Shown here: positions 6,673 to 40,817 of the stretch, piece by piece
Layout: the number at the start of each line of letters is the position of its first letter
Position numbering within the stretch: the first letter of the stretch is position 1
Notes under the pieces: generated by a model
What the model saw: only the letters and a program-made list of their open reading frames with translations
Database searches by the model: none
Told to the model about the DNA's origin: nothing
Program-made: the position numbers and the translations under genes
NCBI GenBank assembly: GCA_964421575.1
Contig: CAYQXI010000008.1
Span: forward strand, 1-40,817
DNA length: 40,817 nt
Reading direction: 5' to 3'
From: an uncultured Nitrosopumilales archaeon
GTDB taxonomy: Archaea > Thermoproteota > Nitrososphaeria > Nitrososphaerales > JAAOZN01

Positions 6673-6685
6673 GCTCCTTCCCTAC

Positions 6686-6692: not shown

Positions 6693-6805
6693 AAAAAGCA
6701 TAGTCAACAATGAATAGTAACCTACTTTAGCCTTTCACCAAAAAATTTACGCTTTCCCGACACTACTACCTTAATCCCCTGTGATTCCACAACCTATGGT
6801 TGGGC

Positions 6806-8538: not shown

Positions 8539-8744
8539 TGTCTGCACCATCACTCGCCCGTCCACTCCTTCTTAATAAAATTTACGCCGCGGCTAGTATT
8601 ATCCTAAAAACTTATCGAGAACATTTTGCGATTGGCTTCTTTTTGTTAAAAGAAAAACAAATATCATATTCTCACTGAATTCTTTGTTAACACTTGCAAC
8701 TTTTTATGATCTGCCTAAGCCGCGTATATCAAGGAGTAAAAGAG

Positions 8745-10034: not shown

Positions 10035-10613
10035 TTCGCTTCCCCCAACTTTATTTGGATTTCCACTATTTTACTTTTGCGGAGAAAAATAACAGCTTTA
10101 GTCTAAAAGCCTTTGTTGATATAATATAACAACGAACGGAGATAACTGATAAGGCGGTCATAAGCTTTTAGCACACAATTCACTTTCTTGCAAGGTTATC
10201 GCGTAATTAGAAACTTTGAATGGTTTGGTAGTCTGTGCCCTAATCTCCAGACTGGCTTCGTAGACGAGATAAATGTTAGTAAGAACCTCCTTCTACGCGT
10301 GGTTTGAAAGAGAGTTAGGCGCTTCATGAATCGAAAGTTTCCATCGAGGAGGAGGGTTGCTTCAATTTACATTGATTAGTCCTTATGGAGAGAAGTTTGA
10401 AGTTGTGGCTAGAAACCAGAGGTTAGAGGCAATGCGAGAGGTAGAAGAAGGTTCACTTTTGTCTCAGACTTTAAATTACCACTACTCATAATGGTTAAGG
10501 TATATGGTGCTCCCGATACTTGATGCTTTGTGCATCTCAGCCTATTTAGGACTTCTTTTATCCTATCACCAGCATTTGACCTTATTTCTACCTATGCTTT
10601 TTGAGTCTGAATC

Positions 10614-10654
10614 TTGTCTCAGGGTTGTCTTTGCTGGGTTAAGACAGAAGACAA
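10614..10654. repeat. Nested inverted repeat TTGTCT-N5-TTGTCTT-N9-AAGACAG-AAGACAA
   Basis: TTGTCT at 10614-10619 and 10625-10630; AAGACA at 10641-10646 and AAGACAA at 10648-10654. It can fold as a two-stem hairpin (6 + 6-7 bp) or act as four half-sites, about 140-180 bp upstream of the biotin-island start. Confidence 0.5.
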
Positions 10655-10793
10655 TAACCAATTGAATTAGCCCGACAAAAACCTTACATAATAAGACAGA
10701 TTTCGCGCCACACCCTCAAAAATACGAGAAAAGCAAAGCTTTTAAAGGTTAAAGATACACCTTTAGGTATAAAATCAAAGGTGGGAGGTAGAC

Positions 10794-11786: not shown

Positions 11787-11798
11787 GAGGTGATGTAG

Positions 11799-21390: not shown

Positions 21391-21613
21391 CGAAATATAG
21401 AATAGCTAAGAATTTTAAGCCTCAATGAAACTTCTTCCTCTTAAAAACACCCAATTCCGATTTAAGAAAAACTCACATTGGGAACACATAACCAAGTTCC
21501 CACCTCCGAAAAACAGCTATCTATTATTCAATAAAAGAAAAAGTAAAGCTCTCCCTACAAAGACTCATCGCTTGCGAAAAGCAAAAATACCTGTATGTTT
21601 CAGCGATTTGCTG

Positions 21614-25840: not shown

Positions 25841-27091
25841 TTGGTAGCTAAACCTAATCCCTTTCAATCGGCATTAAAGCAGTTGGAGATAGCTGCAGAC
25901 CTTTTAAAGATGGACCCTGATATTTATCAGATGCTCAAAGAGCCGAAGAGAATTGTTACAGTTGCTGTGCCTGTGCGTATGGATACTGGTGAAGTAAGAA
26001 CATATATGGGCTACAGGGTTCAGCATAATGATGCGAGAGGACCCTATAAGGGTGGCATAAGATATCACCCAGAAGTTTCGTTAGATGAGGTTAAGGCGTT
26101 AGCTTTCTGGATGACTTGGAAATGTGGTGTAGTGGATGTGCCGTTTGGTGGTGCGAAAGGCGGTGTCGTCTGCAACCCGAAAGGGATGTCGCGTGGAGAG
26201 AAAGAGAGGTTGACTAGAAGATATACCGCTATGATCTCACCTATCATCGGCCCCTACATAGACATCCCAGCACCAGACGTCTACACAGACGCCCAGACCA
26301 TGGCTTGGATAATGGACACATATAGCCAACTTGTAGGACGCCCCGAGCCAGCAGTTGTCACGGGTAAACCTGTTAGTTTAGGTGGCTCAGAGGGGAGGAC
26401 CGAGGCGACCGGATTAGGTGCAGCCATATGTGCGCGTGAGGCAGTTAAGACGCTTGGTCTTGAACTTAAAGATGTTACAGTTGCTATCCAAGGGTTCGGT
26501 AACGTAGGTTCGCACGCAGCTCTAGCCTTGGCAGAGATGGGGTGCAAGATAGTTGCGTTAAGTGATTCACGCGGCGGCGTATTTTCACGGAAAGGGATAA
26601 ACCCCCTTGCAGCTCTCAAGTATAAGGAGGAGACTGGAAGCGTAGTCGGCTTACCTGGATGTGAAGAAATAACCAATGAGGAGCTGTTGGAGCTTGAGTG
26701 CGACATTCTGCTTCCAGCTGCCTTGGAAAACGTCATTACATCCTCTAACGCTGGTAAAATCAAAGCGCGTATAGTGGTTGAAGGTGCTAACGGACCTACT
26801 ACACCCGAAGCTGATACGATATTATATGATAATAAGGTCTTCGTTGTCCCAGATATACTGGCGAATGCTGGTGGTGTGACTGTAAGCTATTTTGAGTGGG
26901 TGCAGAACTTGAATAGAGATCATTGGTCTTTGGCTGAGGTTAAGAGGAAGCTGGAGGAGAAGATGACCTCGGCCTTTAAGACCGTCTACGAGACATCAGT
27001 TAAGCACAATATTGACATGAGGGCTGCTGCGCTTATGGTTGGTGTAGGGAGGGTAGCGGAAGCCATAAAGATGCTTGGGATCTGGCCTTAA
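25841..27091 (+). CDS. gdhA: Glutamate dehydrogenase (Glu/Leu/Phe/Val dehydrogenase family)
   Basis: YRVQHNDARGPYKGGIRYHP...WMTWKCGVVDVPFGGAKGGV contains the catalytic-Lys motif; Rossmann GFGNVGSHAA. TTG start lies 8 nt after GAAGGAG, with a TATA-like ATTTTTAAAGG at 25806-25816. Confidence 0.93.
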   Translation: MVAKPNPFQSALKQLEIAADLLKMDPDIYQMLKEPKRIVTVAVPVRMDTGEVRTYMGYRVQHNDARGPYKGGIRYHPEVSLDEVKALAFWMTWKCGVVDVPFGGAKGGVVCNPKGMSRGEKERLTRRYTAMISPIIGPYIDIPAPDVYTDAQTMAWIMDTYSQLVGRPEPAVVTGKPVSLGGSEGRTEATGLGAAICAREAVKTLGLELKDVTVAIQGFGNVGSHAALALAEMGCKIVALSDSRGGVFSRKGINPLAALKYKEETGSVVGLPGCEEITNEELLELECDILLPAALENVITSSNAGKIKARIVVEGANGPTTPEADTILYDNKVFVVPDILANAGGVTVSYFEWVQNLNRDHWSLAEVKRKLEEKMTSAFKTVYETSVKHNIDMRAAALMVGVGRVAEAIKMLGIWP

Positions 27092-27143
27092 AAGATATAT
27101 GAGTGTTAGTTAAAGGGGTAGGGTGTAGAAGGGTTGTTAAGGA

Positions 27144-27443
27144 TTGCCTCATGAGGGCCCTGACAAGTACGGAAAGTGTTGGCCTAAATGCATATCCTTT
27201 AAGTGCGGCAAAAGAGCGATGCTGATACGGGGACAAACAATCTGGTGCAGTTGGTTAAACGATCTCTGTGCCGGTCCATCCTGCTCCTACGCTTTATGCA
27301 TAAGAAACAAGCTTCTGCCAGACAACAGGTGCGGGCTGGTCGTAAGAAGAATTACGACCGATGTTGTGAAACCAGAGGATTTTAGTCTAAACATAAAGCT
27401 GAGAGGTAAGCTTGCTAAAAAGCTCAATGGCGACATAGTGTAG
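27144..27443 (+). CDS. Cysteine-rich small protein (99 aa), unknown function
   Basis: Eight Cys in the first 63 residues (KCWPKCISFKCGKRAMLIRGQTIWCSWLNDLCAGPSCSYALCIRNKLLPDNRCG), then a basic tail. TTG start. Preferred over the overlapping ORF at 27203-27385, which is compositionally odd. Confidence 0.45.
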   Translation: MPHEGPDKYGKCWPKCISFKCGKRAMLIRGQTIWCSWLNDLCAGPSCSYALCIRNKLLPDNRCGLVVRRITTDVVKPEDFSLNIKLRGKLAKKLNGDIV

Positions 27444-27449
27444 AGGAAG

Positions 27450-28016
27450 TCACTTAATCAACATCTTAACCGCTAGCGCTACAATTCTAGCTGAGAGTAT
27501 GAGCGAGGAGATCGCTTCAGGTATAGCGACTCCACGCCAAGGTAGGAGCCAGATTAATGCGGCCGCGAGAGCCCCAATGAGTGTTAACAAACCAGAGAGC
27601 TTAGACGATTTAAGTAGAAAATGTATGCCTAAAGATAGTAGAGATAGCACGATCAAGACGAAGAATGCGACTGAGACATAGAAGTGTATTCTACCATAGT
27701 TTTCTGGGAAGAGACCTATAAGTGCGAGGAATATTGCTGAGGCGAGTAGTAAAATGCAGCTCAATTTTGCGGTGAAGCCTGTTATGTGGATCATCAAGCC
27801 TATCGAGAAGATGAAGAGTAGGATCCCTGCCGAGATTAATGTGGTGTTGAAGATTATTGCTGATACTCCTTGGACACCCAAGTCACTCAGCGCGTTATCA
27901 AACCAGCTGAAGCCAGGATAGTAGGATATTGCGAGTAGGATGAGGGGGTAAACTGCGATTACACCTACTATACCGCATAAGGCGGCTCCTTTAACAAACC
28001 TTTCTTTTCTCATCAA
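27450..28016 (-). CDS. Polytopic membrane protein, DUF998-like
   Basis: 188 aa with about 6 TM helices. N-terminal YYPGFSWFDNALSDLG resembles the DUF998 motif. Weak assignment. Confidence 0.6.
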   Translation of the reverse strand: MMRKERFVKGAALCGIVGVIAVYPLILLAISYYPGFSWFDNALSDLGVQGVSAIIFNTTLISAGILLFIFSIGLMIHITGFTAKLSCILLLASAIFLALIGLFPENYGRIHFYVSVAFFVLIVLSLLSLGIHFLLKSSKLSGLLTLIGALAAALIWLLPWRGVAIPEAISSLILSARIVALAVKMLIK

Positions 28017-28077
28017 AGTGTTGGTGTCGTTTATTACCTTATATATGAATTGCTCCTAATAAATAAATTAGAGAAGT

Positions 28078-28410
28078 ATGTTCAAGATAGTCTTGGATCA
28101 CGCGCTCCCCCGTAAGTTGAGTTACCTTAGGCTCTATGCTGAGATGGGGGCTGCTAGGCTATACCTCTCCTTTGATAGCGGCAACCTCCAATGGTTCGGC
28201 AAGATAGAAAGGAATAGGAGCTTCTCAAGAACGATGACGGACAAAGAATACTTTGCCCATAGGCTTAAGCACCCCGTTAAAAGGGTGTTGGCTGAGGATG
28301 AAGACGAGATGGTCGTTGAGACGAAGGATGGGGTTGAGGAAAGGTGGCTTAAGCCGAGGTGGCTCCTCAGGGAAGTAAGGATAAAAAGGGCGGGTTTGAG
28401 AGGTAGGTAA
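28078..28410 (+). CDS. Hypothetical charged protein (110 aa), immediately upstream of the polyprenyl synthase
   Basis: Protein-like composition, in contrast to the S/L-rich antisense ORFs. There is a 7-nt gap to the next gene. TATA-like CCTTATATATG at 28037-28047. Confidence 0.5.
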   Translation: MFKIVLDHALPRKLSYLRLYAEMGAARLYLSFDSGNLQWFGKIERNRSFSRTMTDKEYFAHRLKHPVKRVLAEDEDEMVVETKDGVEERWLKPRWLLREVRIKRAGLRGR

Positions 28411-28417
28411 GACGGAG

Positions 28418-29263
28418 ATGCAACAAACCACAAGCACACCAGCAGAACTGTTAGATAAAATAGCCTTTTATGCTAAGATGGTCGATGAAGCTCTTAGTGG
28501 AGAGCTACAGAACTACTTGAACTCTGACTTCTACGAGCCTTTGAAATATGCGTTGGAAGGTGGGAAGCGTATACGGCCGATAATACTTCTTCTATCAAAC
28601 AAGGTTGCTGGTGGTTGTGAGGCGGATGCCCTTAAAGAGGCTGTTGCGGTAGAACTCTTGCACACCGAATCGATCATACATGACGATATTATAGATGACG
28701 AAACCGTAAGGAGGGGCAAGCCGGTCTTCTACCTAATATATGGTTTTAACACATCCCTACTAACAGCAGACTTCGTCTTCGGGATAATCTTGAGCATAGT
28801 CGCTAGATCAAAGAAGAATATAGCTGAAGACCTTGCATCAGCAGCCCTTCAGATGTGTGAAGGCGAGATTATGGAGATGAAGATTGAAGCTGAGAACAGC
28901 GAAGTACCGCTCGATAAGTATCTTCTAATCGTTAGGAAGAAGACAGCAAGTCTATTCGAGGCAGCGGCTAAGATCGGAGCAAAGCTCGCTTCAGCACAAG
29001 GAGAGGTGGTTGAGGCGCTCGCCAGATATGGGCTCAACATAGGTATAGCGTACCAGATCCAAGACGACATCCTAGATTGGAACAACGGCTCTAAGATCGC
29101 CAGAAGAGTAAAGGTGAGCGAAGGCGATGCGAGGAAGATTCTTGCTGAAATCGCCTCGAGATACGCCAACGAGGCGAAGACGAACCTTAGGGATCTTCCT
29201 GACTGCGAAGCCAAGCAGATATTATATGAGATAGCGGACTTCGCTGTGAACCGCTTAAGCTGA
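28418..29263 (+). CDS. trans-Polyprenyl diphosphate synthase (IdsA/GGPPS family, chain length uncertain)
   Basis: First Asp-rich motif LLHTESIIHDDIIDDETVRRG and second motif AYQIQDDILD. 281 aa. Confidence 0.9.
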   Translation: MQQTTSTPAELLDKIAFYAKMVDEALSGELQNYLNSDFYEPLKYALEGGKRIRPIILLLSNKVAGGCEADALKEAVAVELLHTESIIHDDIIDDETVRRGKPVFYLIYGFNTSLLTADFVFGIILSIVARSKKNIAEDLASAALQMCEGEIMEMKIEAENSEVPLDKYLLIVRKKTASLFEAAAKIGAKLASAQGEVVEALARYGLNIGIAYQIQDDILDWNNGSKIARRVKVSEGDARKILAEIASRYANEAKTNLRDLPDCEAKQILYEIADFAVNRLS

Positions 29264-29265
29264 TC

Positions 29266-30735
29266 TCAACCTAAGGCCAAAACCGCGGCTTTAGCAAGAT
29301 CATATATCAGAGAAGGATAGATCCCTACAACGATTATTATGGCTGTAGCCACTAAGAGCACAGCAGATATTACAGGCGGCTCACTGATCTTACCCTGCTC
29401 CATGGAGCCGGTTGGTTCATCGATATACATCCGCTTGATCACCCAAGCATAATAGCCGAGTGAGAGGGCACTGTTCAAGACACCCGCTAAAGCGAGCCAA
29501 GCCATCTCACCTTGGATGGCTGCTGCGAAGAGCACAAGCTTACTCCAGAAGCCGTTCAGAGGAGGTATCCCAGCCAAAGCAAGAAGGGAAACCGCTAGTG
29601 CAAATGAGGTTATGGGCATCCTCCGCCAAAGTGAGGCGAATGAGTCGAGGCTAACTCTACCGGTGGTGCGGTCTACAGCGGCAACGGCCAAGAAAGCTGA
29701 GGACTGCATAATCGCGTGGTTAAAGACGTGGAATAGAACCCCTATTAGAGCTAGGGTCTTAGCGGGCTCTGTAGCAACGGCGAACCCGATGAGGATGTAG
29801 CCTGCTTGTGCTATGCTTGAGTAGGCGAGCATTCTGGGAACTGAACGCTGTGTAAGAGCTGCCACGTTACCTAGCGTCATTGTTGCTAGGGCTAGTATGG
29901 CGAAAGCGGTCGTCCAGTTCACGCTAAGGAATGGGAGGGCTACTACAAACACTCTTATCGCAACTACGAAACCAGCCTTCTTGGTACCAGCTGAGAGGAA
30001 AGCGCTTATGGTGGTTGGTGCGCCTTCGTAGGCGTCTGGTATCCACATGTGGAAAGGTACTACCGACATCTTTAACCCGAATCCCGCTATGAAGAGTGCC
30101 AGTGTCAGGAGGGTTAGCGGGTCTAGGTGGATTGCTGAGGTTTGCAAGGCTTGGAGCACAGCGATCAAGTTTGTGGTGCCCGTTAGTCCATAGGTTAATG
30201 AGATGGCGTAAAGAAGGATACCTGAGGAGAAGGCGCCGAGGAGGAAGTATTTTATCGCGGCTTCGTTCGAGAATGGGTTATCCTTCTTAAGACCGGTAAG
30301 CACATACGTGGGTATACCCATCAGTTCCCAAGCGACCACGATCATAAGTAGGTCTGCGGCGAAGGATAGTAGAACCATGCCTAGTGTTGAGAAGAGTAGG
30401 AGAGAGAAGTATACGGCTAGATTACGGTCACTCCACATGTAGTTTTTAGAGGAGAGGATAACGAGGAGTGAGACGATCTGGACTGTGAGTGCGAAGAAGT
30501 ATGATAAGGGGTCTACGTGAAATAGGTTTGTGTAACTTGGCTTAGGCTCGAAGAGTAGGTAGATCGAGAGGTTAAGTAGAGTGATGGCTAGTGAGGCTGC
30601 GAGGACCACTAAAGAGGCGTAGAATGCTAGGCTCTGCCTTATAGTAGCCCGTTTAGAGAGGCTGAGTGAAGCTACAAACAAACTACCTACTGTGAAGATA
30701 ACAGCATAATCTACTATCACTATATCTGCGCTCAT
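29266..30735 (-). CDS. nuoN: NADH:quinone oxidoreductase (complex I-like) subunit N
   Basis: VAWELMGIPTYVLTGLKKDNPFSNEAAIKYFLLGAFSSGILLYAISLTYGLTGT and HMWIPDAYEGAPTTISAFLS. Last gene of the operon. Confidence 0.9.
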   Translation of the reverse strand: MSADIVIVDYAVIFTVGSLFVASLSLSKRATIRQSLAFYASLVVLAASLAITLLNLSIYLLFEPKPSYTNLFHVDPLSYFFALTVQIVSLLVILSSKNYMWSDRNLAVYFSLLLFSTLGMVLLSFAADLLMIVVAWELMGIPTYVLTGLKKDNPFSNEAAIKYFLLGAFSSGILLYAISLTYGLTGTTNLIAVLQALQTSAIHLDPLTLLTLALFIAGFGLKMSVVPFHMWIPDAYEGAPTTISAFLSAGTKKAGFVVAIRVFVVALPFLSVNWTTAFAILALATMTLGNVAALTQRSVPRMLAYSSIAQAGYILIGFAVATEPAKTLALIGVLFHVFNHAIMQSSAFLAVAAVDRTTGRVSLDSFASLWRRMPITSFALAVSLLALAGIPPLNGFWSKLVLFAAAIQGEMAWLALAGVLNSALSLGYYAWVIKRMYIDEPTGSMEQGKISEPPVISAVLLVATAIIIVVGIYPSLIYDLAKAAVLALG

Positions 30736-32232
30736 CTACCCACCACCCGCAGCCTGATAGAGCGAAAGGGAAAGCGGATCTACAATCCCGAGTAGAAGTG
30801 AGGGGAAGATTAGTAGTAAGAAGAGGGGGACAAGATAGAGGAGGAGCCCAATCATAGCCCTATTATGCATATCGTGGTAGTGAATATGCTCTGGTAATGG
30901 ACTTAGGACCGTCCTCTTAATCATCCACAAGAAGTACGCTACCGTAAGTAGGGGTATCAAGACCGTTAGAGCATACCATCTGTTAACAGAGATGGCGCCT
31001 AAGATAACCATCCACTCGCTGAGAAAGCTACTATACATAGGCACACCCATACCAGCAAGTGAGCCTAAGATGAGGACTAACGCAGTCTTCGGCATACCAA
31101 CCCTCAAACCCTTCAACTCATCGATGTTTCTTGTGCCGGCTTGCTCGTGGATGTAGCCTGAGAGCATGAAGAGTATTCCTATTGCTGCTGCGTGGTTAAA
31201 CATCTGAAAGACCGCTCCAGAGATACCGTAGACAGCACCTTGAGCGGTTAAGGCAGATATACCGGCGAAGCTGCCTAGCAGAACGAAGCCCATGTGGTTT
31301 ATGCTGGTTAGGGCGATCATCCTCTTTAAGTCCCTCTGAACCATCGCTACCAGCGCTCCGTAGAACATGGTGAGGATGCCGAAGGCTATGAAGATCCAAG
31401 CGTATTGCTTGGATGCCTCAGCTAATAGGCCTAGGTTGACTCTTATGAAGCCGTATCCGCCCATCTTTAGGAGGAGACCGGCTAGGAAGACGCTTATCGG
31501 TGCTGGTGCTTCGACGTGTGCGTCTGGGAGCCAAGTGTGGAAGGGCACTACGGGCAGTTTAACCCCGAAGCCTATGAAGGCTGCAGCTGAAGCTAGGAGT
31601 TGAACCCAGAAGGGGATCTTACCAATCAGCTCTGGTATATTGAAGGTGTTTGGTGTTGTGAATAGGTAGATGAGTATGAAGCCTAGAAGCATAATCACAC
31701 TCCCCACGAATGTGAAGATTAGGAACTTCATGGCAGCATACTTACGCCTAGGTCCACCCCAGACACCTATGAAGAAGAACATCGGGATCAACACGATCTC
31801 CCAGAAGACGTAGAAGAGTATGAGGTTGAGTGAGCAGAAGACACCTATTATGCTTCCCTCAAATAGGAGGATGAGGAAGTAGTAGATAGGCTTCTTCTCC
31901 GTTATGAGATCCCAAGAGCCGAGCACCACAAGAACAGAGAGAAGGGATGAGATCAGTATCAGTGACGCACTCAAACCATCCACACCCAGATAGTAGTCTA
32001 CGCCGAAGCCGCCTAACCAGCTGTAAGGCCCTTCTACGAAACGGAAGGAAGCGCCCTCTTTTGAAACATAGAGTGAACCGTACATGCAGAGGGAGAGTGC
32101 GAAGACTACGATAGTTATCACGAGGGAAGCCAGCTCGGCGAGCCGCTCTCTTAATCTTCCGAGCAGATAGACCGGTATCGAACCTATGATGGGTATGAAG
32201 ATCATTAAACTAAGTAAGGGTATATCCAACAT
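30736..32232 (-). CDS. nuoM: Complex I-like subunit M (canonical)
   Basis: LFYVFWEIVLIPMFFFIGVWGGPRRKYAAMKFLIFTFVGSVIML and FHTWLPDAHVEAPAPISVFLAG. Confidence 0.9.
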   Translation of the reverse strand: MLDIPLLSLMIFIPIIGSIPVYLLGRLRERLAELASLVITIVVFALSLCMYGSLYVSKEGASFRFVEGPYSWLGGFGVDYYLGVDGLSASLILISSLLSVLVVLGSWDLITEKKPIYYFLILLFEGSIIGVFCSLNLILFYVFWEIVLIPMFFFIGVWGGPRRKYAAMKFLIFTFVGSVIMLLGFILIYLFTTPNTFNIPELIGKIPFWVQLLASAAAFIGFGVKLPVVPFHTWLPDAHVEAPAPISVFLAGLLLKMGGYGFIRVNLGLLAEASKQYAWIFIAFGILTMFYGALVAMVQRDLKRMIALTSINHMGFVLLGSFAGISALTAQGAVYGISGAVFQMFNHAAAIGILFMLSGYIHEQAGTRNIDELKGLRVGMPKTALVLILGSLAGMGVPMYSSFLSEWMVILGAISVNRWYALTVLIPLLTVAYFLWMIKRTVLSPLPEHIHYHDMHNRAMIGLLLYLVPLFLLLIFPSLLLGIVDPLSLSLYQAAGGG

Positions 32233-32235
32233 CCA

Positions 32236-34374
32236 TCACCTCAACAGCAGAGAGGGGTTCAGAATTAGGATGATCGACACAACCACCACACCTATCGTGA
32301 AGACGAGCAGATAGTTCTGCGTAACACCGGTCTGGATCCGTCTACTGACTCTAGAGAAGATGGTGCTTACGTAGGCTAAGCCGTTTATGAAGCCATCTAC
32401 AATATATTTGTCGAACCAGTTCCCAGCCTTCGATGAAACTATGGAGGCTATGGCTGCTGCGTCACTCCACTTATCTATTACGCCTAACTCTAAGCCTCTC
32501 CAGACTACACGCGCAAACTTAGCCAAGCCGTCTACGAAGATGGCGTAGTAGAGTGTGTTAAGATACCACCTATTCTCTAGGAAGATGTAAAGCGCTCTTA
32601 ACACACTGCTTGAGTTCACGATCTTAGCCGGATCAGCACGCCGCGCTACATAGATATAGTAGCCTAAAGGTAAACCAACCGCCAAAGCAGCTAAAGATCC
32701 TCCTAACGCTACTGGGTTGATCTCAAACCCTTTATGTGCTACCTTAAAACCATACTCGTGCAGATAGTGCTCTAATGATTCGTGCAGATAGGTTTCCATA
32801 AATGGGCCTACTATTCCTATTGCTAGGGATGCTACCGCTAGTATTGTATATGGTATCCACATAACCTTAGGTGCTTCACCGAGGTGGTGCTCAGCTTCAC
32901 TATGTGAGCTATGCTTATGCTCAAGCTCCTTAAGATACTTGCTCTTTTCACCAAAGAAGGCTAAGCCGATCATCCTAAAGGTGTAGAACACTGTCAACAT
33001 AGCGGTTACAACAGCTAAAGCAAAGAGGATAGGGGCGCATGGTGTAGAAGCCTCCCAAACCGCAGCCAGAACAGCGTCCTTACTCCAAAAGCCGCTCAGA
33101 GGTGGTATACCGGCTAAGGAGGCTGAGGCTAGGAGCATAGAGAAGAAGGTGATCGGCATAATATTTCTTAGACCACCCATATCAGTAAGATACTTGCTTC
33201 CACAAGCGTGGATGAGCGCACCAGCAGCCATGAAGAGCGAAGCCTTAAAGATCGCGTGGCTCATTAGGTGGAAGAAAGCTGCTGTGAAACCACCTGCAAA
33301 GGCTGTGCTCTCGCTGACCAAGCCAGCAGCACCTAAAGCAAGCATCATATAGCCGATCTGTGAGACCGTTGAGTAGGCTAAGACCTTCTTTATCTCCCTA
33401 CCCACCACGGCTTGAGTGGCTGCTAAGAAGGCTGTGAAGGCACCTATCCAAGCGACCACCTCGAAGAACAGAGGTACTGCGTTTACTGCTTGGAAGGCTG
33501 TGTAGAAGATTGGGCCTACTCTTGCGACCAGAAAGACACCAGCCTTCACCATGGTTGCTGCGTGTATGAGGGCTGAGACAGAAGTGGGGCCAGCCATAGC
33601 GTCTGGGAGCCATTCTTGTAGCGGGAACTGGGCTGACTTGCCTACCGCTCCTCCGAAGATCAGTATGGTTACTGGTATGAGGAGCCCTGCTGAGGCTAGG
33701 CTGCTCGCCCACTCTGTGTGTTCGGCGAGCTGCGTGAAGCTGAAGGTGTGCGAGTAGGTGTAGAGTATTAGTAGTCCTATTAGGAAGGCTGAGTCACCGA
33801 CCCTTGTGGTTATGAAGGCTTTCATGCCTGCGTGGCTCGGCGAGTAGGCTTGCTCACGCCCCCACGCCTTCCTTCCACCTTCCTCAACAGGCGTCCCGAC
33901 CCAATACTTCTTCTCGTCACTATGCCAGAAGCCGATGAGCGCATAGGAGCAGAGCCCTACACCCTCCCAGCCGAAGAATAGTTGAAGTAGGTTATCTGAG
34001 AGGACTATGAGCTGCATGTTGCCTATGAAGAAGTTCATGAAGAACCAGTATCTTGTCAGATTTGGTTCGCCCTTCATGTAGCCGAGGCTGTAGACCATGA
34101 TGAGGAAGCTGATCCAGCCCACTACGTTAGCCATCGTTACGCTGAGTGGGTCTGCTAAGACACCAGCCTTGATACCTATGGAAGGTATCCATTCAACCGT
34201 GCTGTGGATGACTTCCTTAGATGGGATCATTAGGGCTGCTGAAACCGCTGATGCTAAGGAGAAGAGCACAGCAAGGTAGTCTCTAAACCTATCACCGATC
34301 TTAGCGGAGACGGGCGTTAGAATCGCGCCGACTATCGGCAGAATCCAAACAAGCCAAGGTAGAGCTTCATTCAA
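32236..34374 (-). CDS. nuoL: Complex I-like subunit L, long form (712 aa)
   Basis: LLQLFFGWEGVGLCSYALIGFW, FPLQEWLPDAMAGPTSVSALIHAATMVKAGV, and a C-terminal amphipathic region ending in a final TM helix (RRIQTGVTQNYLLVFTIGVVVV). Confidence 0.9.
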   Translation of the reverse strand: MNEALPWLVWILPIVGAILTPVSAKIGDRFRDYLAVLFSLASAVSAALMIPSKEVIHSTVEWIPSIGIKAGVLADPLSVTMANVVGWISFLIMVYSLGYMKGEPNLTRYWFFMNFFIGNMQLIVLSDNLLQLFFGWEGVGLCSYALIGFWHSDEKKYWVGTPVEEGGRKAWGREQAYSPSHAGMKAFITTRVGDSAFLIGLLILYTYSHTFSFTQLAEHTEWASSLASAGLLIPVTILIFGGAVGKSAQFPLQEWLPDAMAGPTSVSALIHAATMVKAGVFLVARVGPIFYTAFQAVNAVPLFFEVVAWIGAFTAFLAATQAVVGREIKKVLAYSTVSQIGYMMLALGAAGLVSESTAFAGGFTAAFFHLMSHAIFKASLFMAAGALIHACGSKYLTDMGGLRNIMPITFFSMLLASASLAGIPPLSGFWSKDAVLAAVWEASTPCAPILFALAVVTAMLTVFYTFRMIGLAFFGEKSKYLKELEHKHSSHSEAEHHLGEAPKVMWIPYTILAVASLAIGIVGPFMETYLHESLEHYLHEYGFKVAHKGFEINPVALGGSLAALAVGLPLGYYIYVARRADPAKIVNSSSVLRALYIFLENRWYLNTLYYAIFVDGLAKFARVVWRGLELGVIDKWSDAAAIASIVSSKAGNWFDKYIVDGFINGLAYVSTIFSRVSRRIQTGVTQNYLLVFTIGVVVVSIILILNPSLLLR

Positions 34375-34380
34375 CTCAAA

Positions 34381-35925
34381 TCACCCTCCTAGAAGAATCT
34401 TCACAGCCGGGAAGAGGCGCTCTGTGAACAGAGCTGGGTAAACTCCGATGAGCAGCCCAACAAAGGCCAAGAATAGTAGAGGTATGGTGACCGTAGGAGG
34501 CGCCTCCCTTACCTCTTGCAGATTCTCGGGCAATCTCCCGAAGAATATTCTCTTCATCGTCCAAAGCGAGTAGCCGGCTGTTAGAGGCGTTGCGAGGAGC
34601 GCTATGGCGCTCACAATCAGTTTCGCTAGGTCTCCCCGCTCTAAGGCACCTGCGAAGGAACCGTAGAAGATCATCCACTCTGACTGGAAGCCGTTGGTTG
34701 GTGGTATGCCCATTATGGTTAGGAAGCCTAGCATGGCTGCTGTAGCTGTTATAGGAAGCTTTCGCGCCAAGCCGCCCATCTTGCTTATACTTCTTAACCC
34801 GTGCGCTTGCAAGATTATGCTTCCCGCTGTCATGAAGAGGATAGCCTTGCCTGTGCCGTGGCTGACATACTGTAGCACAGAGCCTGAGAGACCTATGTAG
34901 AAGGCTGATGCTATGCCGAAGATTATGTAGCCCATTTGGCTGACGCTTGAGTACGCTAAGAGCCTCTTCACATCATCCTGCATAAGTGCCATGAAGCCTC
35001 CGTAGATGATTGTAACCAGACCCCAGATGCTTATGGCGAAAAAGATGTATTCGTATGCTGAGGGGAGTAGGTATAGTAGGATTCTTATGTAGGCGTAGCC
35101 TCCTATGCCGATCATAGCTGGCGAAAGCAGAGCGCTGATTGGTGTTGGTGCTTCAGCGTGCGCATAGGGGAGCCAGATGTGCAGACCAAATGAGGCGAGC
35201 TTCACGAAGAGCCCAACCGTTATGAGGATGGCTATCGCTTGAATGTATCCGAAGGGGATGGCTAAGGTATCGATATTCTTCCCCAACCCCCCCGATGGTA
35301 GGAGGCTGACCATATCGAAGGTCAGAGGCCTACCGCTATACCAAGATGAGAGGAAGGCTGTGGTCAAGATTCCAGCTAAGAGTAGTAGTGCACCTATGTG
35401 GGTCCAGAGGAAGTACATTAGAGAGATCTTTGCTCTATCTCCGTAGCCAAACTCCGCAATCAAAAGGTAGGATGGGATAAGCATAATCTCGAAGAATATG
35501 TAGAATTGGATGAGGTTAGTAGCCAGAACCGTACCGAGCATACCAGCTGCGTAAGTGAGGTATAATAGGTGGTAGATTCCGTGCTTTGCGTTCGCTGCGT
35601 GCTCATCTTTGACCTCTTCTTCGATTCGATGCTTCATATAGGGTATGGAGTAGACCGCCAGCACCGTTGAGAGAAGATAGATCGTTATCGCAAAGGGTAG
35701 GCTTAGACCATCTAATCTAAGCCCAAATAATCCGAAGGGTTGCCAAGAGTAGAGTTCAAAGTAGTCTGGGCTGATGGAAGCTGAGTAAATGAGGAGGAGG
35801 GTAGAGTAGGCTAAGATCGCAAAGGAAAGCCAACCAACCCTACTTCCAACCCTCCTCCCGATCAAATAGACGATTGGTGAAAGGACGATAGGCAAGAACA
35901 CAGCTTGGAGCAGAGGATTTATCAT
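34381..35925 (-). CDS. Second, divergent NuoM/MrpD-like antiporter subunit
   Basis: LIQFYIFFEIMLIPSYLLIAEFGYGDRAKISLMYFLWTHIGALLL and LHIWLPYAHAEAPTPISALLS follow the NuoM pattern but diverge from the canonical copy (AEFGYGDR vs GVWGGPRR). Sits between nuoK and nuoL. Confidence 0.85.
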   Translation of the reverse strand: MINPLLQAVFLPIVLSPIVYLIGRRVGSRVGWLSFAILAYSTLLLIYSASISPDYFELYSWQPFGLFGLRLDGLSLPFAITIYLLSTVLAVYSIPYMKHRIEEEVKDEHAANAKHGIYHLLYLTYAAGMLGTVLATNLIQFYIFFEIMLIPSYLLIAEFGYGDRAKISLMYFLWTHIGALLLLAGILTTAFLSSWYSGRPLTFDMVSLLPSGGLGKNIDTLAIPFGYIQAIAILITVGLFVKLASFGLHIWLPYAHAEAPTPISALLSPAMIGIGGYAYIRILLYLLPSAYEYIFFAISIWGLVTIIYGGFMALMQDDVKRLLAYSSVSQMGYIIFGIASAFYIGLSGSVLQYVSHGTGKAILFMTAGSIILQAHGLRSISKMGGLARKLPITATAAMLGFLTIMGIPPTNGFQSEWMIFYGSFAGALERGDLAKLIVSAIALLATPLTAGYSLWTMKRIFFGRLPENLQEVREAPPTVTIPLLFLAFVGLLIGVYPALFTERLFPAVKILLGG

Positions 35926-35927
35926 AT

Positions 35928-36236
35928 CTACCCCCTCAACCCCTTAATTTCAGACACATCAACATCCTTCCTCAACCTAAAGACTGCCAAGATTATCGCC
36001 AACCCAACGGCTGCCTCAGCTGCCGCCAAGGCTATAGAGAACATAGCTAAAGAGTGACCGGTAACTGATGTTGGGTGGAGATAGCGTGTGAAGGCTACGA
36101 AGTTTAGGTTAGCTGCGTTTATCAGAATCTCAATCGCAAAGAGCATCCTCAACGCATTCTTCTTCGTAACAAGCCCGTAGACACCTATGGCGAAGAGCAC
36201 AACGGAGACGAACAAGTAGTTTACAAGCGGCTCCAA
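35928..36236 (-). CDS. nuoK: Complex I-like subunit K
   Basis: LFAIGVYGLVTKKNALRMLFAIEILINAANLNFVAF. Start set to TTG 36236 (GGAGAGG 7 nt upstream), 1 nt after the nuoJ stop, rather than GTG 36272, which overlaps nuoJ. Confidence 0.85.
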   Translation of the reverse strand: MEPLVNYLFVSVVLFAIGVYGLVTKKNALRMLFAIEILINAANLNFVAFTRYLHPTSVTGHSLAMFSIALAAAEAAVGLAIILAVFRLRKDVDVSEIKGLRG

Positions 36237-36237
36237 A

Positions 36238-36726
36238 TCAATCCCTCTCCAACTTAGCCAAAACCACAGCACCTATTACAGCAGAGGCTAAGACGAGCGC
36301 CAAGGTGATGAAGGCGAGCCAATATTCTGTGAGGATCTGCGCACCTATGAGTGTAAAGGGCGCCTGTTCAACTGAAGGAATAACAGTTGCTATTGTTGAA
36401 GCGTAGACGAGGTAGCCTAAGCCTAAAGCGACTACAATCGCAACTAACACACCAGCCGCTCTATGCACACCCTCCTTCGCTTTAAGCCACTGCTCCCTTC
36501 GCACAAGCATAACCGTGAAGAGAATAAGGACAGCGATCGCCCCAACGTATACTGTAAGCTGGAACATTGCCAAGAAGACCGCATCCAACAGAGCGAAGAA
36601 GCCTGCAATCCCAACGAATGATAGGGCTAATGCGATGGCACCGTAAACGACCTCTTTAGCCTCCAAAGCCAATATTGCTGAGATTACGGTTATGACGGCA
36701 AGCACAGCAAACGCAACATCAACCAA
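36238..36726 (-). CDS. nuoJ: Complex I-like subunit J
   Basis: 162 aa. VVYGAIALALSFVGIAGFFALLDAVFLAMFQLTVYVGAIAVLILFTVML matches the NuoJ core. Confidence 0.85.
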   Translation of the reverse strand: MVDVAFAVLAVITVISAILALEAKEVVYGAIALALSFVGIAGFFALLDAVFLAMFQLTVYVGAIAVLILFTVMLVRREQWLKAKEGVHRAAGVLVAIVVALGLGYLVYASTIATVIPSVEQAPFTLIGAQILTEYWLAFITLALVLASAVIGAVVLAKLERD

Positions 36727-36743
36727 CCCTCATCACCACACCC

Positions 36744-37889
36744 CTATAGCTTAAAGCCTCCTAAGACAGCGGCTGCTGCTACAACCAGATTTATGAGGGC
36801 GAGTATGAAGTATACTGCCCAGCTCTGCCTTAGAAGTAGATCTATTCTTAACCTTGGGAAGACACCTCTAGGTATGAGTAGAAAGGTCGTGACGATGAAT
36901 GTTTTAAATATGAACCAGAACTCTGGGGGTAGAGGCTGAGGACCTAACCAGCCACCTAAGAAGAGTGTGGTAAAGAGCGCTGAGAGTACATAGAGTTTTA
37001 TGTAAACAGCTATACCCAATATCAACCCAAAGTTCATACCACCGTACTCCGTCAACCACCCTGAAACCAGCTCGGGCTCGGCTTCAGGTAGATCAAAAGG
37101 TATCCGCTCAAGCTCAGCCAAAGAGCAGATGTAGAAGGTTAAAGCGGATATCGGGGCTAGCAGAGCAAACCAGATGCTCGACTGCTTCTCCACGATATCA
37201 ATCAGGTTCAGCGAGCCAGCAAAAACCACAGGTGCGAGCACAGAGAGTATAAGTGGGATCTCGTAGGCAACCATCTGGTGCAGCGCTCTTAGCCCTCCGA
37301 GCATAGGGTATCTGCTGTTAGAAGACCAAGCAGCCATCAAAGCAGTTATAGGAAAGAAGCCTAGCACAGCGAAGATAACCAAAACACCGACATCAGACCG
37401 CGCTATCACCCACCTTTCGGTAACAGGTATAACAGCGATAGCAGCGGTAGCGATCGTCACAGTGAGTAGGGGTGCGGCTATGAAGAAGAAACGGTCAACC
37501 ACCCTCGGGATAACCAGCTCCTTGAAGAGAAGCTTCAGGACGTCTGCGATGGGTTGGAGGATACCTTCGAACTTCCCCGCATATAAGGGGCCTACGCGGA
37601 GCTGTATTTTAGCTAGGAGTTTCCTCTCCCATAAACCGGCTATAGCAGCATACAACGCCACAAACGTGAACCCGGGAAATACCACTATCCTAAAGAAGTC
37701 TGTATCCATAAGAGCAAAGGTAAAGGCTATCGCTTCTTGAGGATTGATAAGCATAGAAGGTGTTAGAGGAAAGCTAGGACCGATAAAGTAGTAGGCTGCT
37801 AAGATCGCAATCAACCCTAAGACAAGAATAACTATTATTAACGCCACTATTCTGATTAAAAAGCTTGTAAGCGTTCTAATTATGGGCAT
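36744..37889 (-). CDS. nuoH: Complex I-like subunit H (with about a 50-aa N-terminal TM extension)
   Basis: WERKLLAKIQLRVGPLYAGKFEGILQPIADVLKLLFKE is the NuoH signature; also ...SRYPMLGGLRALHQMVAYEIPL and LAELERIPFDLPEAEPELVSG. Confidence 0.9.
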   Translation of the reverse strand: MPIIRTLTSFLIRIVALIIVILVLGLIAILAAYYFIGPSFPLTPSMLINPQEAIAFTFALMDTDFFRIVVFPGFTFVALYAAIAGLWERKLLAKIQLRVGPLYAGKFEGILQPIADVLKLLFKELVIPRVVDRFFFIAAPLLTVTIATAAIAVIPVTERWVIARSDVGVLVIFAVLGFFPITALMAAWSSNSRYPMLGGLRALHQMVAYEIPLILSVLAPVVFAGSLNLIDIVEKQSSIWFALLAPISALTFYICSLAELERIPFDLPEAEPELVSGWLTEYGGMNFGLILGIAVYIKLYVLSALFTTLFLGGWLGPQPLPPEFWFIFKTFIVTTFLLIPRGVFPRLRIDLLLRQSWAVYFILALINLVVAAAAVLGGFKL

Positions 37890-37937
37890 AACACCACCTC
37901 TAAACTAAAGATAAGAGGGGAAGGGAGGCGGATTTGT

Positions 37938-38297
37938 TCACCATAGCTCACGCCTCGCAGCGTGATAAAGCGTAAAACCTAACGGGATAAGCAAAATGCC
38001 AATAAACAGAATTACTGCTAAGAAACCGCTCAGCCCAACGGTGTATAGAGAGATACCCCAAGCGAAGAGAAACATAGACATCACGTCGAAGGCTACGAAC
38101 ATAAGCAGATAGGCGTAGTACTGCATCATCAAGGAGAACTTACCTCCGCCACTTGGGACTTGACCGCATTCATACTGCGTTTCCTTTGGCTTATTGGGGT
38201 TCTTAGGTGCAATTAATATTGGTATTATAAGAAAAGGAACAGAAGCTGCAAACGCAAAACCAGCGGTTAGTAAAATCAATAGTAGATCCGAGGCCAT
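37938..38297 (-). CDS. nuoA: Complex I-like subunit A
   Basis: QYECGQVPSGGGKFSLMMQYYAYLLMFVAFDVMSMFLFAW. Start set to ATG 38297 (GGTGGGAGGA 10 nt upstream). TATA-like TTAAATAT lies further upstream. Confidence 0.88.
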   Translation of the reverse strand: MASDLLLILLTAGFAFAASVPFLIIPILIAPKNPNKPKETQYECGQVPSGGGKFSLMMQYYAYLLMFVAFDVMSMFLFAWGISLYTVGLSGFLAVILFIGILLIPLGFTLYHAARRELW

Positions 38298-38390
38298 GCC
38301 CCTCAAATCCTCCCACCAAAACCATATTTAAGGCTTGACATTCGCTATTGGCAGAAAGGGTTTTATCCAAGCAGCACGGAGGTAAGCTTG

Positions 38391-38672
38391 ATGCCCACAC
38401 ACCTCTCTAAGAAAGGTGATTTGCTTGAAGTTCGCTTCGTAGACGAAGATATAGCGCTAGCAGATATACTACACCATGAGCTTCTAAAGGACGAGAAGGT
38501 GGTATTTGCCGGGGTCGCTCCAAGCCACCCCTTATTGGCTGAAAACAAGCTAATTATCCAAAGTAAAGGAGAGCCTACTAAAGACTTGTTGGCGAGCGTA
38601 GAGAGAGCTCTCTCAACAATAAAAGAGATGTTGGATAAGACCGAATCTATTCTAAAGAAGCGAGGTGTGTGA
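38391..38672 (+). CDS. rpoL: DNA-directed RNA polymerase subunit L (Rpo11)
   Basis: LEVRFVDEDIALADILHHELLKDEKVVFAGVAPSHPLLAENKLIIQSKGEPTKDL follows the Rpo11/RpoL pattern (E.HT..N.L...L......V.fAgY...HPl). Confidence 0.8.
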   Translation: MPTHLSKKGDLLEVRFVDEDIALADILHHELLKDEKVVFAGVAPSHPLLAENKLIIQSKGEPTKDLLASVERALSTIKEMLDKTESILKKRGV

Positions 38673-38674
38673 AG

Positions 38675-39019
38675 ATGAGGTTCTGCCCAAAGTGCGGAAC
38701 CAAGCTCAGATATAGGCAAGTGAAGACCGAGGGGAAGAGTGAACCCGCGTTAGCGTGTGATAAATGCGGCTACTGGGAACCTATAGCGAAGAGCGCCACA
38801 AAACCCGTACTAAAGGAGTCAGAAGGAGAAGGTGTGATTAAAGTCGTTGGCGATGAGGAGCTGGAGATCAAGACGATGCCTACCACAACGATAGAGTGCC
38901 CCAGATGCCACAATAATGAAGCATACTGGTGGTTTCTGCAAACAAGGGGTGGTGACGAACCCACCACACAGTTCTACCGATGCACAAAGTGTGAATATAC
39001 TTGGAGGCTCTACGCTTAG
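38675..39019 (+). CDS. tfs: Transcription factor S (TFIIS-type; RNA polymerase subunit M-like)
   Basis: N-terminal Zn ribbon MRFCPKCGTKL...CDKCGY and C-terminal TFIIS ribbon CPRCHNNEAYWWFLQTRGGDEPTTQFYRCTKCEYTW. GAGGTG lies 6 nt before the ATG. Confidence 0.9.
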   Translation: MRFCPKCGTKLRYRQVKTEGKSEPALACDKCGYWEPIAKSATKPVLKESEGEGVIKVVGDEELEIKTMPTTTIECPRCHNNEAYWWFLQTRGGDEPTTQFYRCTKCEYTWRLYA

Positions 39020-39507
39020 AGCTGTAGATCTCCGAACCGCTTTATGTAGGGTATTAGCCCACCCACCTCTAAAATCTTCTTCATCGTATCAGGCAGAGGG
39101 GGGAAGCGTATCTCCAAGCCTTTCGTATGGTTAACCACAACTCCTGCTGAAAGATCGAGCGAAAGGAGATCACCATCATCTATCAAAGAAGTGTCACAGA
39201 TCACAGCTGGGAGACCTATGTTTATGGCGTTTCTATAGAAGATTCTGGCGAACGATTTAGCCACCACCGCTTCTACACCAACGAGCTTTATTATGGTTGG
39301 CGCGTGCTCTCTGCTTGAACCAGACCCGAAGTTAACACCAGCAACCACAAAGTCGCCCTTCTTCACATTCAAGGGGAAATCTGGTCTAGCATCCTCAAGC
39401 ACGTGCTTAGCCAACTCCTCTAGGTTGGAGCGGAGATGGAAGTATCTACCCGGCGCTATATGGTCTGTAGTTATATTATCCCCAAACTTCCACGCTCTAC
39501 CAGTCAA
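39016..39507 (-). CDS. leuD: Aconitase-family small subunit (3-isopropylmalate dehydratase LeuD / homoaconitase HacB type)
   Basis: GRAWKFGDNITTDHIAPGRY...GDFVVAGVNFGSGSSREHAP...FARIFYRNAINIGLP. TTG start directly follows the large-subunit stop. Confidence 0.88.
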   Translation of the reverse strand: MTGRAWKFGDNITTDHIAPGRYFHLRSNLEELAKHVLEDARPDFPLNVKKGDFVVAGVNFGSGSSREHAPTIIKLVGVEAVVAKSFARIFYRNAINIGLPAVICDTSLIDDGDLLSLDLSAGVVVNHTKGLEIRFPPLPDTMKKILEVGGLIPYIKRFGDLQL

Positions 39508-40761
39508 CTACATCACATCCCTGGGGTCTGTTATCCTACCATTTAAGGCGGTTGCGGCTGCTGTGGCCGGTGAACCTAGGTAGGTGTATGCAGCTGGATT
39601 TCCCGTTCTACCCAAGAAGTTTCGATTGGTCGTTGTGAAAATAACTTCTCCATCAGCAGGGACACCTCCTAGAGCGCCGAAGCATAAGCCGCATCCAGGT
39701 GGGGTTATTACCGCACCCGCTTCGATCAGCGTTCTTAATGTGCCGTCAGCCATCGCTTTGACATAGATCTCTTTTGAGGCTGGTGTGACTATCAATCTGG
39801 TCTCCGGATGGATCTGCTTACCCTTTAGTATCGAGGCTGCTATATGTAGGTCTTCGAGCCTTGCGTTGGTACAGCTGCCTATGAAGACTATATCCACCTT
39901 AACCCCCTTGACTTCGCTTACCGGCTTGACGTTATCTACAGAATGTGGGCAAGCAATCTGTGGTTCAAGTGCTGTGGCATCTATCTTGATGACACGCTCA
40001 TAGGATGCGTCGTCGTCGCTTCTGATCTCTCTGAACTCTTCAATCCTACCCCGCTCAGCCAAGTACCTCTTTGTAACATTATCAGATGGTACTAATCCGA
40101 CTTTAGCACCAGCCTCAACCACCATGTTACATAGAACCAACCGCTCAGACATTGAAAGCGAATCTATAGTCTCACCTACGAATTCGAGCGCCTTATAGTT
40201 TGCACCATCTGCACCAAGCAAGCCTATGAGGTAAAGTATAATGTCCTTCGCATATACGCCTTTTTGGAGAGAACCATTTACCTCAACTCTGAAAGTTTCA
40301 GGCACACGGAACCAAGTCTTACCGAGCGCAGCAGCTACAGCTACATCTGTAGCACCCATGCCTGTTGCGAACGCTGCTAGCGCACCAGCTGTAACTGTAT
40401 GTGAATCTGTGCCTACTATGATCTGACCCGGTGAAGCGTAGTATTCTGCTATGAGTTGGTGGCATATACCTGAACCAGCTTCATGGAATCTGCAGCCCGT
40501 TTCAGCAGCAAACCTTCTCAAGGTGCTCTGCTCATTCGAGATCTCTTTTCTGGGGCTTGGGACAACGTGGTCGATGAAGATTATTGTGCGCTTGGGGTTA
40601 TGGGGCTTTGATACACCAAGCTCTTTAAGTTGTTTTATTAGTAGTGGTCCGCTTGCGTCGTGTGTAAACACATAATCTACTTTTACAACCGCTACTTCAC
40701 CCGCAGATACGCTGCGGGCAGCATGCTCACTTAGAATCTTTTCAGCTATCGTCTTACCCAA
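39508..40761 (-). CDS. leuC: Aconitase-family large subunit (LeuC / HacA type)
   Basis: MGKTIAEKILSEHA..., VDYVFTHDASGP, GTDSHTVTAGALAAFATGMGATDVA, IGSCTNARLEDL, PGCGLCFG (Fe-S cysteines). Confidence 0.92.
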   Translation of the reverse strand: MGKTIAEKILSEHAARSVSAGEVAVVKVDYVFTHDASGPLLIKQLKELGVSKPHNPKRTIIFIDHVVPSPRKEISNEQSTLRRFAAETGCRFHEAGSGICHQLIAEYYASPGQIIVGTDSHTVTAGALAAFATGMGATDVAVAAALGKTWFRVPETFRVEVNGSLQKGVYAKDIILYLIGLLGADGANYKALEFVGETIDSLSMSERLVLCNMVVEAGAKVGLVPSDNVTKRYLAERGRIEEFREIRSDDDASYERVIKIDATALEPQIACPHSVDNVKPVSEVKGVKVDIVFIGSCTNARLEDLHIAASILKGKQIHPETRLIVTPASKEIYVKAMADGTLRTLIEAGAVITPPGCGLCFGALGGVPADGEVIFTTTNRNFLGRTGNPAAYTYLGSPATAAATALNGRITDPRDVM

Positions 40762-40817
40762 CGCGCTAACCCCGACCCTTTAACCATATTATGTTAGTAA
40801 CCAGCACAAGAGAGATT

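Follow-up and report, generated by a model that had tools for sequence, protein, structure and literature searches.

Complex I genes sorted into a membrane-arm operon and a separate Q-module cluster in an uncultured Nitrososphaeria archaeon

Background

A nuo operon in the genome of an uncultured archaeon of the Nitrososphaeria (Thaumarchaeota) encodes only membrane subunits of complex I. This raises the question of where the quinone-reducing Q-module (NuoB, NuoC, NuoD and NuoI) is encoded, and whether the membrane arm works with the usual partner or with another one. A sequence-only reading of the locus had put forward two answers, that the Q-module must be encoded elsewhere or that the membrane arm docks a non-canonical peripheral module. 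To address this question we analysed the window, which is the whole stretch of 40,817 nucleotides containing the operon, together with the genome to which it belongs and the genomes of its relatives. The genome is a MAG of 1.44 Mb in 124 contigs, with a completeness of 98.8% and an estimated contamination of 7.3%; no match to amoA was found in it.

Results

Pfam analysis showed that eight co-directional genes on the minus strand, nuoA-H-J-K-M-L-M2-N, lie nearly contiguously at positions 29266-38297, and the intergenic gaps from nuoA to nuoN are 48, 17, 1, 2, 6, 3 and 0 bp. None of the eight is nuoB, nuoC, nuoD or nuoI, and every gap is too short to fit one of these genes. On these points the sequence-only reading was borne out. 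The first gene, nuoA (37938..38297), encodes 119 aa matching Oxidored_q4 (E=3.7e-21); its ATG start at 38297 is conserved in congeners, where the protein begins with 'MGSDLL' in place of 'MASDLL'. It is followed by nuoH (36744..37889; 381 aa; NADHdh, E=5.5e-97), which occurs as a single copy in the genome, and by nuoJ (36238..36726; 162 aa; Oxidored_q3, E=2.9e-27). For nuoK (35928..36236; about 102 aa; Oxidored_q2, E=5.3e-26) the longest ORF extends to 36272, and alignments with relatives start at residue 13; the likely start is the TTG at 36236, located 1 bp past the nuoJ stop. The remaining four genes all encode Proton_antipo_M proteins: nuoM (34381..35925), which is the canonical orthologue; nuoL (32236..34374; 712 aa), which carries Proton_antipo_N as well and has an extended lateral helix; nuoM2 (30736..32232), an extra fourth antiporter-like subunit; and nuoN (29266..30735; 489 aa; E=1.6e-72), which clusters with the NuoN of relatives. 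The top match of NuoL among solved structures is NdhF/NuoL.

Upstream of nuoA and divergent from it is rpoL (38388..38672, plus strand; RNA_pol_L_2, E=1.1e-12), as had been noticed from the sequence, and the next gene is TFS/RpoM (38669-39019). rpoL is only the context of the operon and stands outside the complex. A conserved 118-aa minus-strand ORF at 38363-38719 was considered as an accessory subunit and rejected, as it is an antisense shadow of rpoL. A putative TATA box, TTAAATAT, is located on the minus strand at 38324..38331, 27-34 nt 5' of the nuoA ATG, and may serve as the promoter of the operon; 'aagccTTAAATATgg' upstream of nuoA is kept in the genomes G001, G003 and G004.

The genes lacking from the operon were found elsewhere in the genome, on contig C61, in agreement with the first of the two answers given above. 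There, nuoB (9184-9822), nuoI (9827-10324) and nuoCD (10321-12057), in which C and D are fused, were identified by Pfam as a tight cluster. All the 11 core subunits (NuoA/B/C/D/H/I/J/K/L/M/N) are encoded in the genome, and NuoF was not found in it. When every subunit was searched by tblastn against the whole 1.44-Mb genome, each nuo gene proved to be present in one copy and no paralogue of NuoB, NuoD or NuoH was detected; PF00346 matches are confined to C61. Two weak matches were discarded. A NuoB-like match on contig C55 is the small subunit of an Mvh-type hydrogenase in an Hdr/Hyp cluster and represents no second complex I-type module, and a NuoI-like match in the window (22334-22717) corresponds to the ferredoxin domain of a membrane Fe-S oxidoreductase of the NarI/CCG type. 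The presence of the Q-module on a second contig of this genome argues for a lineage-specific operon split and not for a new enzyme.

The four Cys ligands of cluster N2 in NuoB (ACCSVE, GACAISGG and PGCPP) and the two CxxCxxCxxxC motifs of NuoI (CTGCQLCSFMC and CVFCGLCVDSC) are intact. The NiFe-binding Cys motifs are absent from NuoCD, in which 'QHPGSGH' is present and the C-terminus reads '...VEADR'. The canonical quinone-site Tyr is also absent from NuoCD, which has Val at the position of Tyr87 of T. thermophilus Nqo4, and the equivalent of Nqo4 His38 is displaced by one residue ('HPGSGH'). We considered the missing Tyr as a sign of an altered Q-module and dropped it, because the same departure at Tyr and His recurred in every one of the 50-odd NuoD sequences examined from Thaumarchaeota and Acidilobus; the loss is thus a trait of the archaeal type and unlinked to the split.

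NuoL carries a 26-residue insertion in its HL helix (32413..32490, minus strand; about residues 629-654). In the alignment this insertion is present in 13 out of 13 NuoL proteins from two-M loci, our own included, and in 0 of 11 from one-M loci; PMC9040806 describes it as a signature of 2M complexes. The phylogenetic tree placed the nuoM2 product, encoded between nuoL and nuoN, in a separate clade (support 100/100) that is restricted to 2M loci, and grouped the product of the nuoM beside nuoK with the only NuoM present in one-M Thaumarchaeota and in Acidilobus. The order K-M-L-N is standard among these archaea. The gene beside nuoK, which had been labelled nuoM' in the sequence-only reading, is actually the canonical nuoM, and the additional copy lies between nuoL and nuoN. 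M2 retains the proton-pathway residues TM5 Glu, TM7 Lys, TM8 Lys and TM12 Glu. Judged from its genes, the enzyme is the known 2M-type complex I that lacks NuoEFG.

The same two nuo loci are present in three congeners (G001, G003 and G010), which are separate species with independent assemblies, and the flanks at both loci match in the two congeners where they are available. In the genus, nuoA..N lie between AcnLS-TFS-rpoL and GGPS, and nuoB-I-CD between NTP-PGI-GalT and MFS-GuaA. The two loci diverge in parallel (84-93% vs 90-96% in G003; 78-92% vs 83-87% in G001). In G001, a genome of 6 contigs, they sit on separate contigs with a distance of at least about 128 kb between them. Outside the genus the layouts vary: in family f8, too, the two clusters are on separate contigs, family f2 (e.g. 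L056) has them adjacent and divergent with about 80-130 bp between them, in family f3 only nuoB and nuoI are gone from the operon, and an intact A-B-C-D-H-I-J-K-M-L-(M)-N operon is found in most of the order's remaining families. PMC10833072, on non-AOA Nitrososphaeria, contains no discussion of nuo gene order. The NuoD, NuoH and concatenated trees all gave ((((own,G003),G001),f8),f2), with bootstrap values of 82-100% on this topology and 100% for the whole clade. Since NuoD and NuoH yield the same clade, both halves have been inherited together.

These results largely agree with what the sequence-only reading had expected of a simple operon split, namely a Q-module block elsewhere and relatives, here in the same order, with an intact operon. 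When the sequences upstream of nuoA and nuoB were compared in four genomes, no operator-like motif common to both was found. The two regions carry separate conserved TATA-like boxes, TTAAATAT for nuoA and ATATATA for nuoB; the promoters have only these generic boxes in common, which counts against the reading that both units serve one complex.

Discussion

We consider it very probable that the archaeon makes one complete complex I of the 2M type that lacks NuoEFG and is specified by two unlinked gene units, of which the window holds the membrane arm. This explanation draws on gene content, copy number, synteny, shared descent and the 2M signatures as observed above. A canonical nuoABCDHIJKMLM2N operon would have been re-sorted by arm in the ancestor of families f1, f8 and f2; in f2, the earliest-branching of them, the units still stand back to back with a short divergent promoter region in common, and they would later have drifted apart (f8, f1). 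The series from the intact operon through f3 and f2 to f8/f1, in this presumed order of steps, suggests how an operon could re-sort along the modular boundaries of the enzyme. The products of both units may assemble into one L-shaped enzyme, in which electrons would pass from the two NuoI clusters to N2 of NuoB and on to quinone at the NuoCD/NuoB/NuoH interface. Because NuoF is absent, the electron donor is probably ferredoxin. Proton pumping, at a presumed stoichiometry, would fall to the four antiporter-like subunits, which the lengthened NuoL helix would hold in place. Co-regulation and physical association of the two arms are what we infer from sequence.

The membrane arm might instead dock a non-canonical peripheral module, or act alone as an Mrp-like cation/proton antiporter, with NuoB-I-CD serving another function. 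The two gene sets are indeed unlinked and have separate promoters, an Hdr/Mvh-type hydrogenase cluster is present elsewhere in the genome, and marine actinomycetes possess additional, membrane-only nuoAHJKLMN operons that have no known partner (PMC6676996). We nevertheless regard this as highly unlikely, and the non-canonical partner proposed from the sequence is not upheld: every nuo gene is single-copy, the 98.8%-complete genome offers no second NuoB, NuoD or NuoH homologue as part of another module, and the Mvh-type small subunit is part of a cytosolic cluster linked to Hdr and is not of the membrane-docking group-4 type. Moreover, the genome retains NuoH and NuoA, which contribute the docking site and quinone channel and diverge in step with NuoB/I/CD, the trees of the two halves are congruent, and the clusters are adjacent and divergent in a relative (f2).

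It is slightly less probable still that the split 2M cluster with its fused nuoCD came by horizontal transfer from a donor of the Chloroflexi type in which it was already so arranged. The subunits all share 45-69% identity with canonical thaumarchaeal homologues and are nested among them, in trees that took in no Chloroflexi sequences; the gene orders differ, being B-I-CD and K-M-L-M2-N here and B-CD-I and L-M1-M2-N as reported for Chloroflexi; and the rearranged layouts of relatives, with B and I removed in f3 and adjacent clusters in f2, could be intermediates. A fragmented and partly contaminated MAG might also suggest an artefact of assembly or binning, with the operon really intact or C61 derived from another organism. 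This is extremely improbable. Gaps of 0-48 bp cannot accommodate the missing genes, the identical layout in the three independent congener assemblies, one of them in 6 contigs, shows that the arrangement is not an assembly artefact, and the synteny and identity levels of C61 agree with those of C8, the contig of the window. The explanation by one complex encoded in two units is therefore the one that we retain.

A 2M complex I that lacks NuoEFG is already known from Thaumarchaeota (PMC7300363), and for the heterotrophic marine Thaumarchaeota the same paper describes it as 'clade 2' of Chadwick et al. 2018. Like the enzyme predicted here, it has a second NuoM, the 26-residue NuoL HL insertion, no NuoEFG and the order K-M-L-M2-N, and the proteins of loci L017 and L019-L023 are 45-67% identical to the present ones. 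These genomes, however, have a single contiguous A-B-C-D-H-I-J-K-M-L-M2-N, whereas here nuoB, nuoI and the fused nuoCD have moved out. According to PMC7117926, which cites Chadwick et al. 2018, Chloroflexi 2M complexes of the Anaerolinea type have nuoB/C/D/I apart from the membrane operon and a fused nuoCD. Uncoupling of the two arms at the gene level is thus less unusual than had been claimed. The separated genes and the fusion are common to both systems, but the Chloroflexi layout is bacterial, with nuoLM1M2N and nuoB-CD-I. Since the present proteins are thaumarchaeal by descent, the resemblance is most likely convergent. A membrane-arm-only cluster, in the order A-H-J-K-L-M-N, is also found in the marine actinomycetes Salinispora, Streptomyces and Kocuria (PMC6676996), where it accompanies a full nuoA-N operon as an additional copy; here it is the sole copy, with a single-copy Q-module elsewhere.

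Group 4 membrane-bound [NiFe] hydrogenases, Mbx and Ech are distinguished by NiFe-binding CxxC motifs at both termini of the large subunit and by a paralogous NuoB/D/H set; NuoCD has no such motifs, and no such paralogues were found in this genome. NDH-1 of cyanobacteria and plastids is, like the present enzyme, an 11-subunit-type complex I without NuoEFG and with dispersed gene groups, the ndh genes being scattered across several loci. Unlike the units described here, its groupings (ndhCKJ, ndhAIGE, ndhH and ndhD/F/B) are not cleanly sorted by arm, and it uses subunits specific to oxygenic phototrophs and for ferredoxin docking, which were not found in this genome.

Conclusions

The analysis removes a false lead, as the complex I membrane arm needs no new partner, and the current understanding of complex I is unchanged. 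That the sorting by arm into two separately promoted units is adaptive and not neutral drift seems to us improbable. Were it so, the pumping arm and the Fe-S/quinone module could be produced at unequal levels or at separate times, for instance under iron or oxygen limitation, a free membrane arm could serve as an Mrp-like antiporter, and the like sorting with fused nuoCD in Chloroflexi 2M complexes would, as a case of convergence, speak for such a link. The gene-order series within one archaeal order, which parallels the Chloroflexi 2M arrangement, is of modest value; it could provide a small natural experiment on whether the assembly of complex I is affected by operon structure.

Two loci for one probable complex I

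The eight closely packed nuo genes at 29266-38297, on the minus strand of the window, were assigned by Pfam to NuoA, NuoH, NuoJ, NuoK and four Proton_antipo_M proteins, one of which (712 aa) carries an additional NuoL-type N-terminal domain. The gaps between them are 48, 17, 1, 2, 6, 3 and 0 bp, taking the conserved ATG at 38297 as the nuoA start and the TTG at 36236 as the nuoK start. Upstream of nuoA lies the divergent rpoL (38388-38672, plus strand, RNA_pol_L_2), and TFS/RpoM is next after it. The sequence-only reading had described a membrane-only nuo operon, and its gene set, gap sizes, divergent rpoL and lack of space for nuoB, C, D or I among the eight genes were all borne out. The G+C content of the window is ~42-45% in 1-26000 and 48-50% over 26000-40817 (the GDH-nuo-aconitase part).

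That reading left two options: a Q-module (NuoB/C/D/I) encoded elsewhere, or a different peripheral partner for the membrane arm. The window is contig C8 of a genome of 1.44 Mb and 124 contigs. A NuoD-family search of the whole genome gave a match on contig C61 only, and the first option held: nuoB (9184-9822), nuoI (9827-10324) and a fused nuoCD (10321-12057; locus L003) are located there, nuoB and nuoI 4 bp apart and nuoI and nuoCD overlapping by 4 bp, with a GalT-like gene upstream and an MFS transporter downstream. Whole-genome tblastn found each of the eleven Nuo proteins exactly once and no paralogues of NuoB, NuoD or NuoH; no NuoF was found in the genome. All four N2-cluster cysteines are present in NuoB and both CxxCxxCxxxC motifs in NuoI, and NuoCD has no NiFe-type cysteine motifs. 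The genome thus encodes the full gene set of a single complex I lacking NuoEFG, sorted by arm into two pieces; a different partner for the membrane arm, as the second option had it, is very unlikely.

The congeners (family f1) bear on whether the split is an assembly artefact, which has a negligible probability. Both loci are present in G001 and G003 with flanks identical to those in the genome studied, AcnL-AcnS-TFS-rpoL and GGPS around nuoA..N, and NTP-PGI-GalT and MFS-GuaA around nuoB-I-CD, and amino-acid identities to that genome run parallel for both halves. The two loci of G001 (6 contigs) are on different contigs, at least ~128 kb apart; in the third congener, G002, nuoH and nuoB-I-CD are on separate, short contigs. 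Trees of NuoD (peripheral arm), NuoH (membrane arm) and concatenated NuoH+D+J+K+M, all limited to archaeal sequences, recovered the same clade, ((((own,G003),G001),f8),f2), nested among thaumarchaeal sequences. The whole clade has 100% support in all three, and support at every internal node is 100% with the concatenated data and 82-100% for NuoD or NuoH alone; family f3 is its sister in the NuoH tree (95%). This congruence indicates that both halves were inherited together, and transfer of the split 2M cluster from a Chloroflexi-type source is most improbable.

A conserved TATA-like box precedes the start codon of each of the two nuo units by ~27-36 nt, and it is highly probable that a single complex I would be assembled from two unlinked transcription units.

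Gene orders in relatives

Family f8 (G010) has A-H-J-K-M and I-CD in the same arrangement as the genome studied. In family f2 (L056), nuoN-M2-L-M-K-J-H-A is on one strand and nuoB-I-CD on the other, ~80-130 bp away. The arm-sorted layout arose once, and the adjacent, divergent state of f2 is plausibly an intermediate before unlinking in f8 and f1, an order of steps that we infer. Within this taxonomic order, family f3 has yet another layout, the third (L014 7019-12298, L068 2850-3434 and L069 6066-6560), with a tight A-C-D-H-J-K-M operon and nuoB and nuoI each solitary on other contigs, in a genome (G005) only 75% complete. Family f10 has another split, A-B-C-D and, 45 kb off, H-I-J-K-M-L-M2-N. 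The remaining thaumarchaeal loci long enough to judge are all canonical, A-B-C-D-H-I-J-K-M-L-(M2)-N.

In the f10 genome G012 (L059 8210-9808 and L060 4604-6283), insertions of ~1.1-1.2 kb, perhaps inteins or inserted elements, interrupt nuoI and nuoB; the two halves of each gene align well on either side. G001 carries a degraded second nuoH (contig C1 ~363042-364372; L067 8043-9373) in three stop-containing fragments of 35-47% identity, alongside a nuoI-like piece at the contig end. These pieces, which have no counterpart in the genome studied, may be a remnant of another NuoH-containing complex.

Comparison with known systems

A split thaumarchaeal complex I is not a new system, and our literature search found no paper that describes an arm-sorted nuo layout in Thaumarchaeota. 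Chloroflexi 2M complexes are reported to have nuoB/C/D/I apart from the membrane operon and a fused nuoCD (PMC7117926, citing Chadwick et al. 2018), and marine actinomycetes have membrane-only nuoAHJKLMN operons as extra copies (PMC6676996). The present case differs from these in its archaeal host, in its own orders B-I-CD and K-M-L-M2-N, and in having relatives with other rearranged layouts that are possible intermediates.

2M type and subunit features

In NuoL of the genome studied and all two-M relatives, the lateral HL helix carries a 26-residue block that has been described as the signature of 2M complex I (PMC9040806); it is absent in every one-M relative. An earlier report of the 2M form exists for Thaumarchaeota (PMC7300363). 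The sequence-only reading had taken the copy adjoining nuoK (34381-35925) as the extra NuoM, but the tree of M/N-type subunits reverses these labels: that copy has as its orthologue the sole NuoM in one-M Thaumarchaeota and Acidilobus, and the one between nuoL and nuoN (30736-32232) falls in a separate, 2M-only clade. The Glu/Lys/Lys/Glu set is complete in this M2. The canonical NuoM orthologue (homologues in L007-L061) lacks the central TM8 lysine, with 'MIGIGGY' against 'LLKMGGY' in M2, which retains it; the lysine is missing from every aligned orthologue, 11/11 thaumarchaeal and one from Acidilobus. In NuoD of L003 and of L004-L057, Val/Ile aligns with the quinone-binding Tyr87 of T. thermophilus Nqo4, and 'HPGSGH' replaces 'HPxxHG'; both departures are universal among the thaumarchaeal and Acidilobus sequences examined.

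Host metabolism and electron supply

The genome studied and its near relatives lack AmoA, which was detected in two genomes of the order used as positive controls; ammonia oxidation by this organism is therefore unlikely. The remaining genes of the window are compatible with a heterotrophic way of life. They encode ETF, aldehyde:ferredoxin oxidoreductase (AOR, 23882-25693), biotin functions, a PxpABC-like carboxyltransferase of the 5-oxoprolinase type and a glycolate-oxidase-like FAD-linked oxidase with its CCG/Fe-S partner. An alternative electron route into the quinone pool may be formed by EtfAB (6806-8565, minus strand) and a membrane Fe-S oxidoreductase of 732 aa (21425-23623, plus strand), which has a NarI-like TM domain, 2x[4Fe-4S] and CCG domains.

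Contig C55 (~246-8000) encodes an Mvh-type [NiFe]-hydrogenase small subunit, MvhD, HdrA, HdrB, HdrC, a maturation protease, HypB, HypA and HypE; the large subunit would fall past the contig end. The cluster points to an H2:heterodisulfide/ferredoxin module, here in a Nitrososphaeria genome that lacks amoA. Because NuoF is absent, ferredoxin would be the probable electron donor to complex I, and reduced ferredoxin could come from the AOR and from the Hdr/Mvh cluster.
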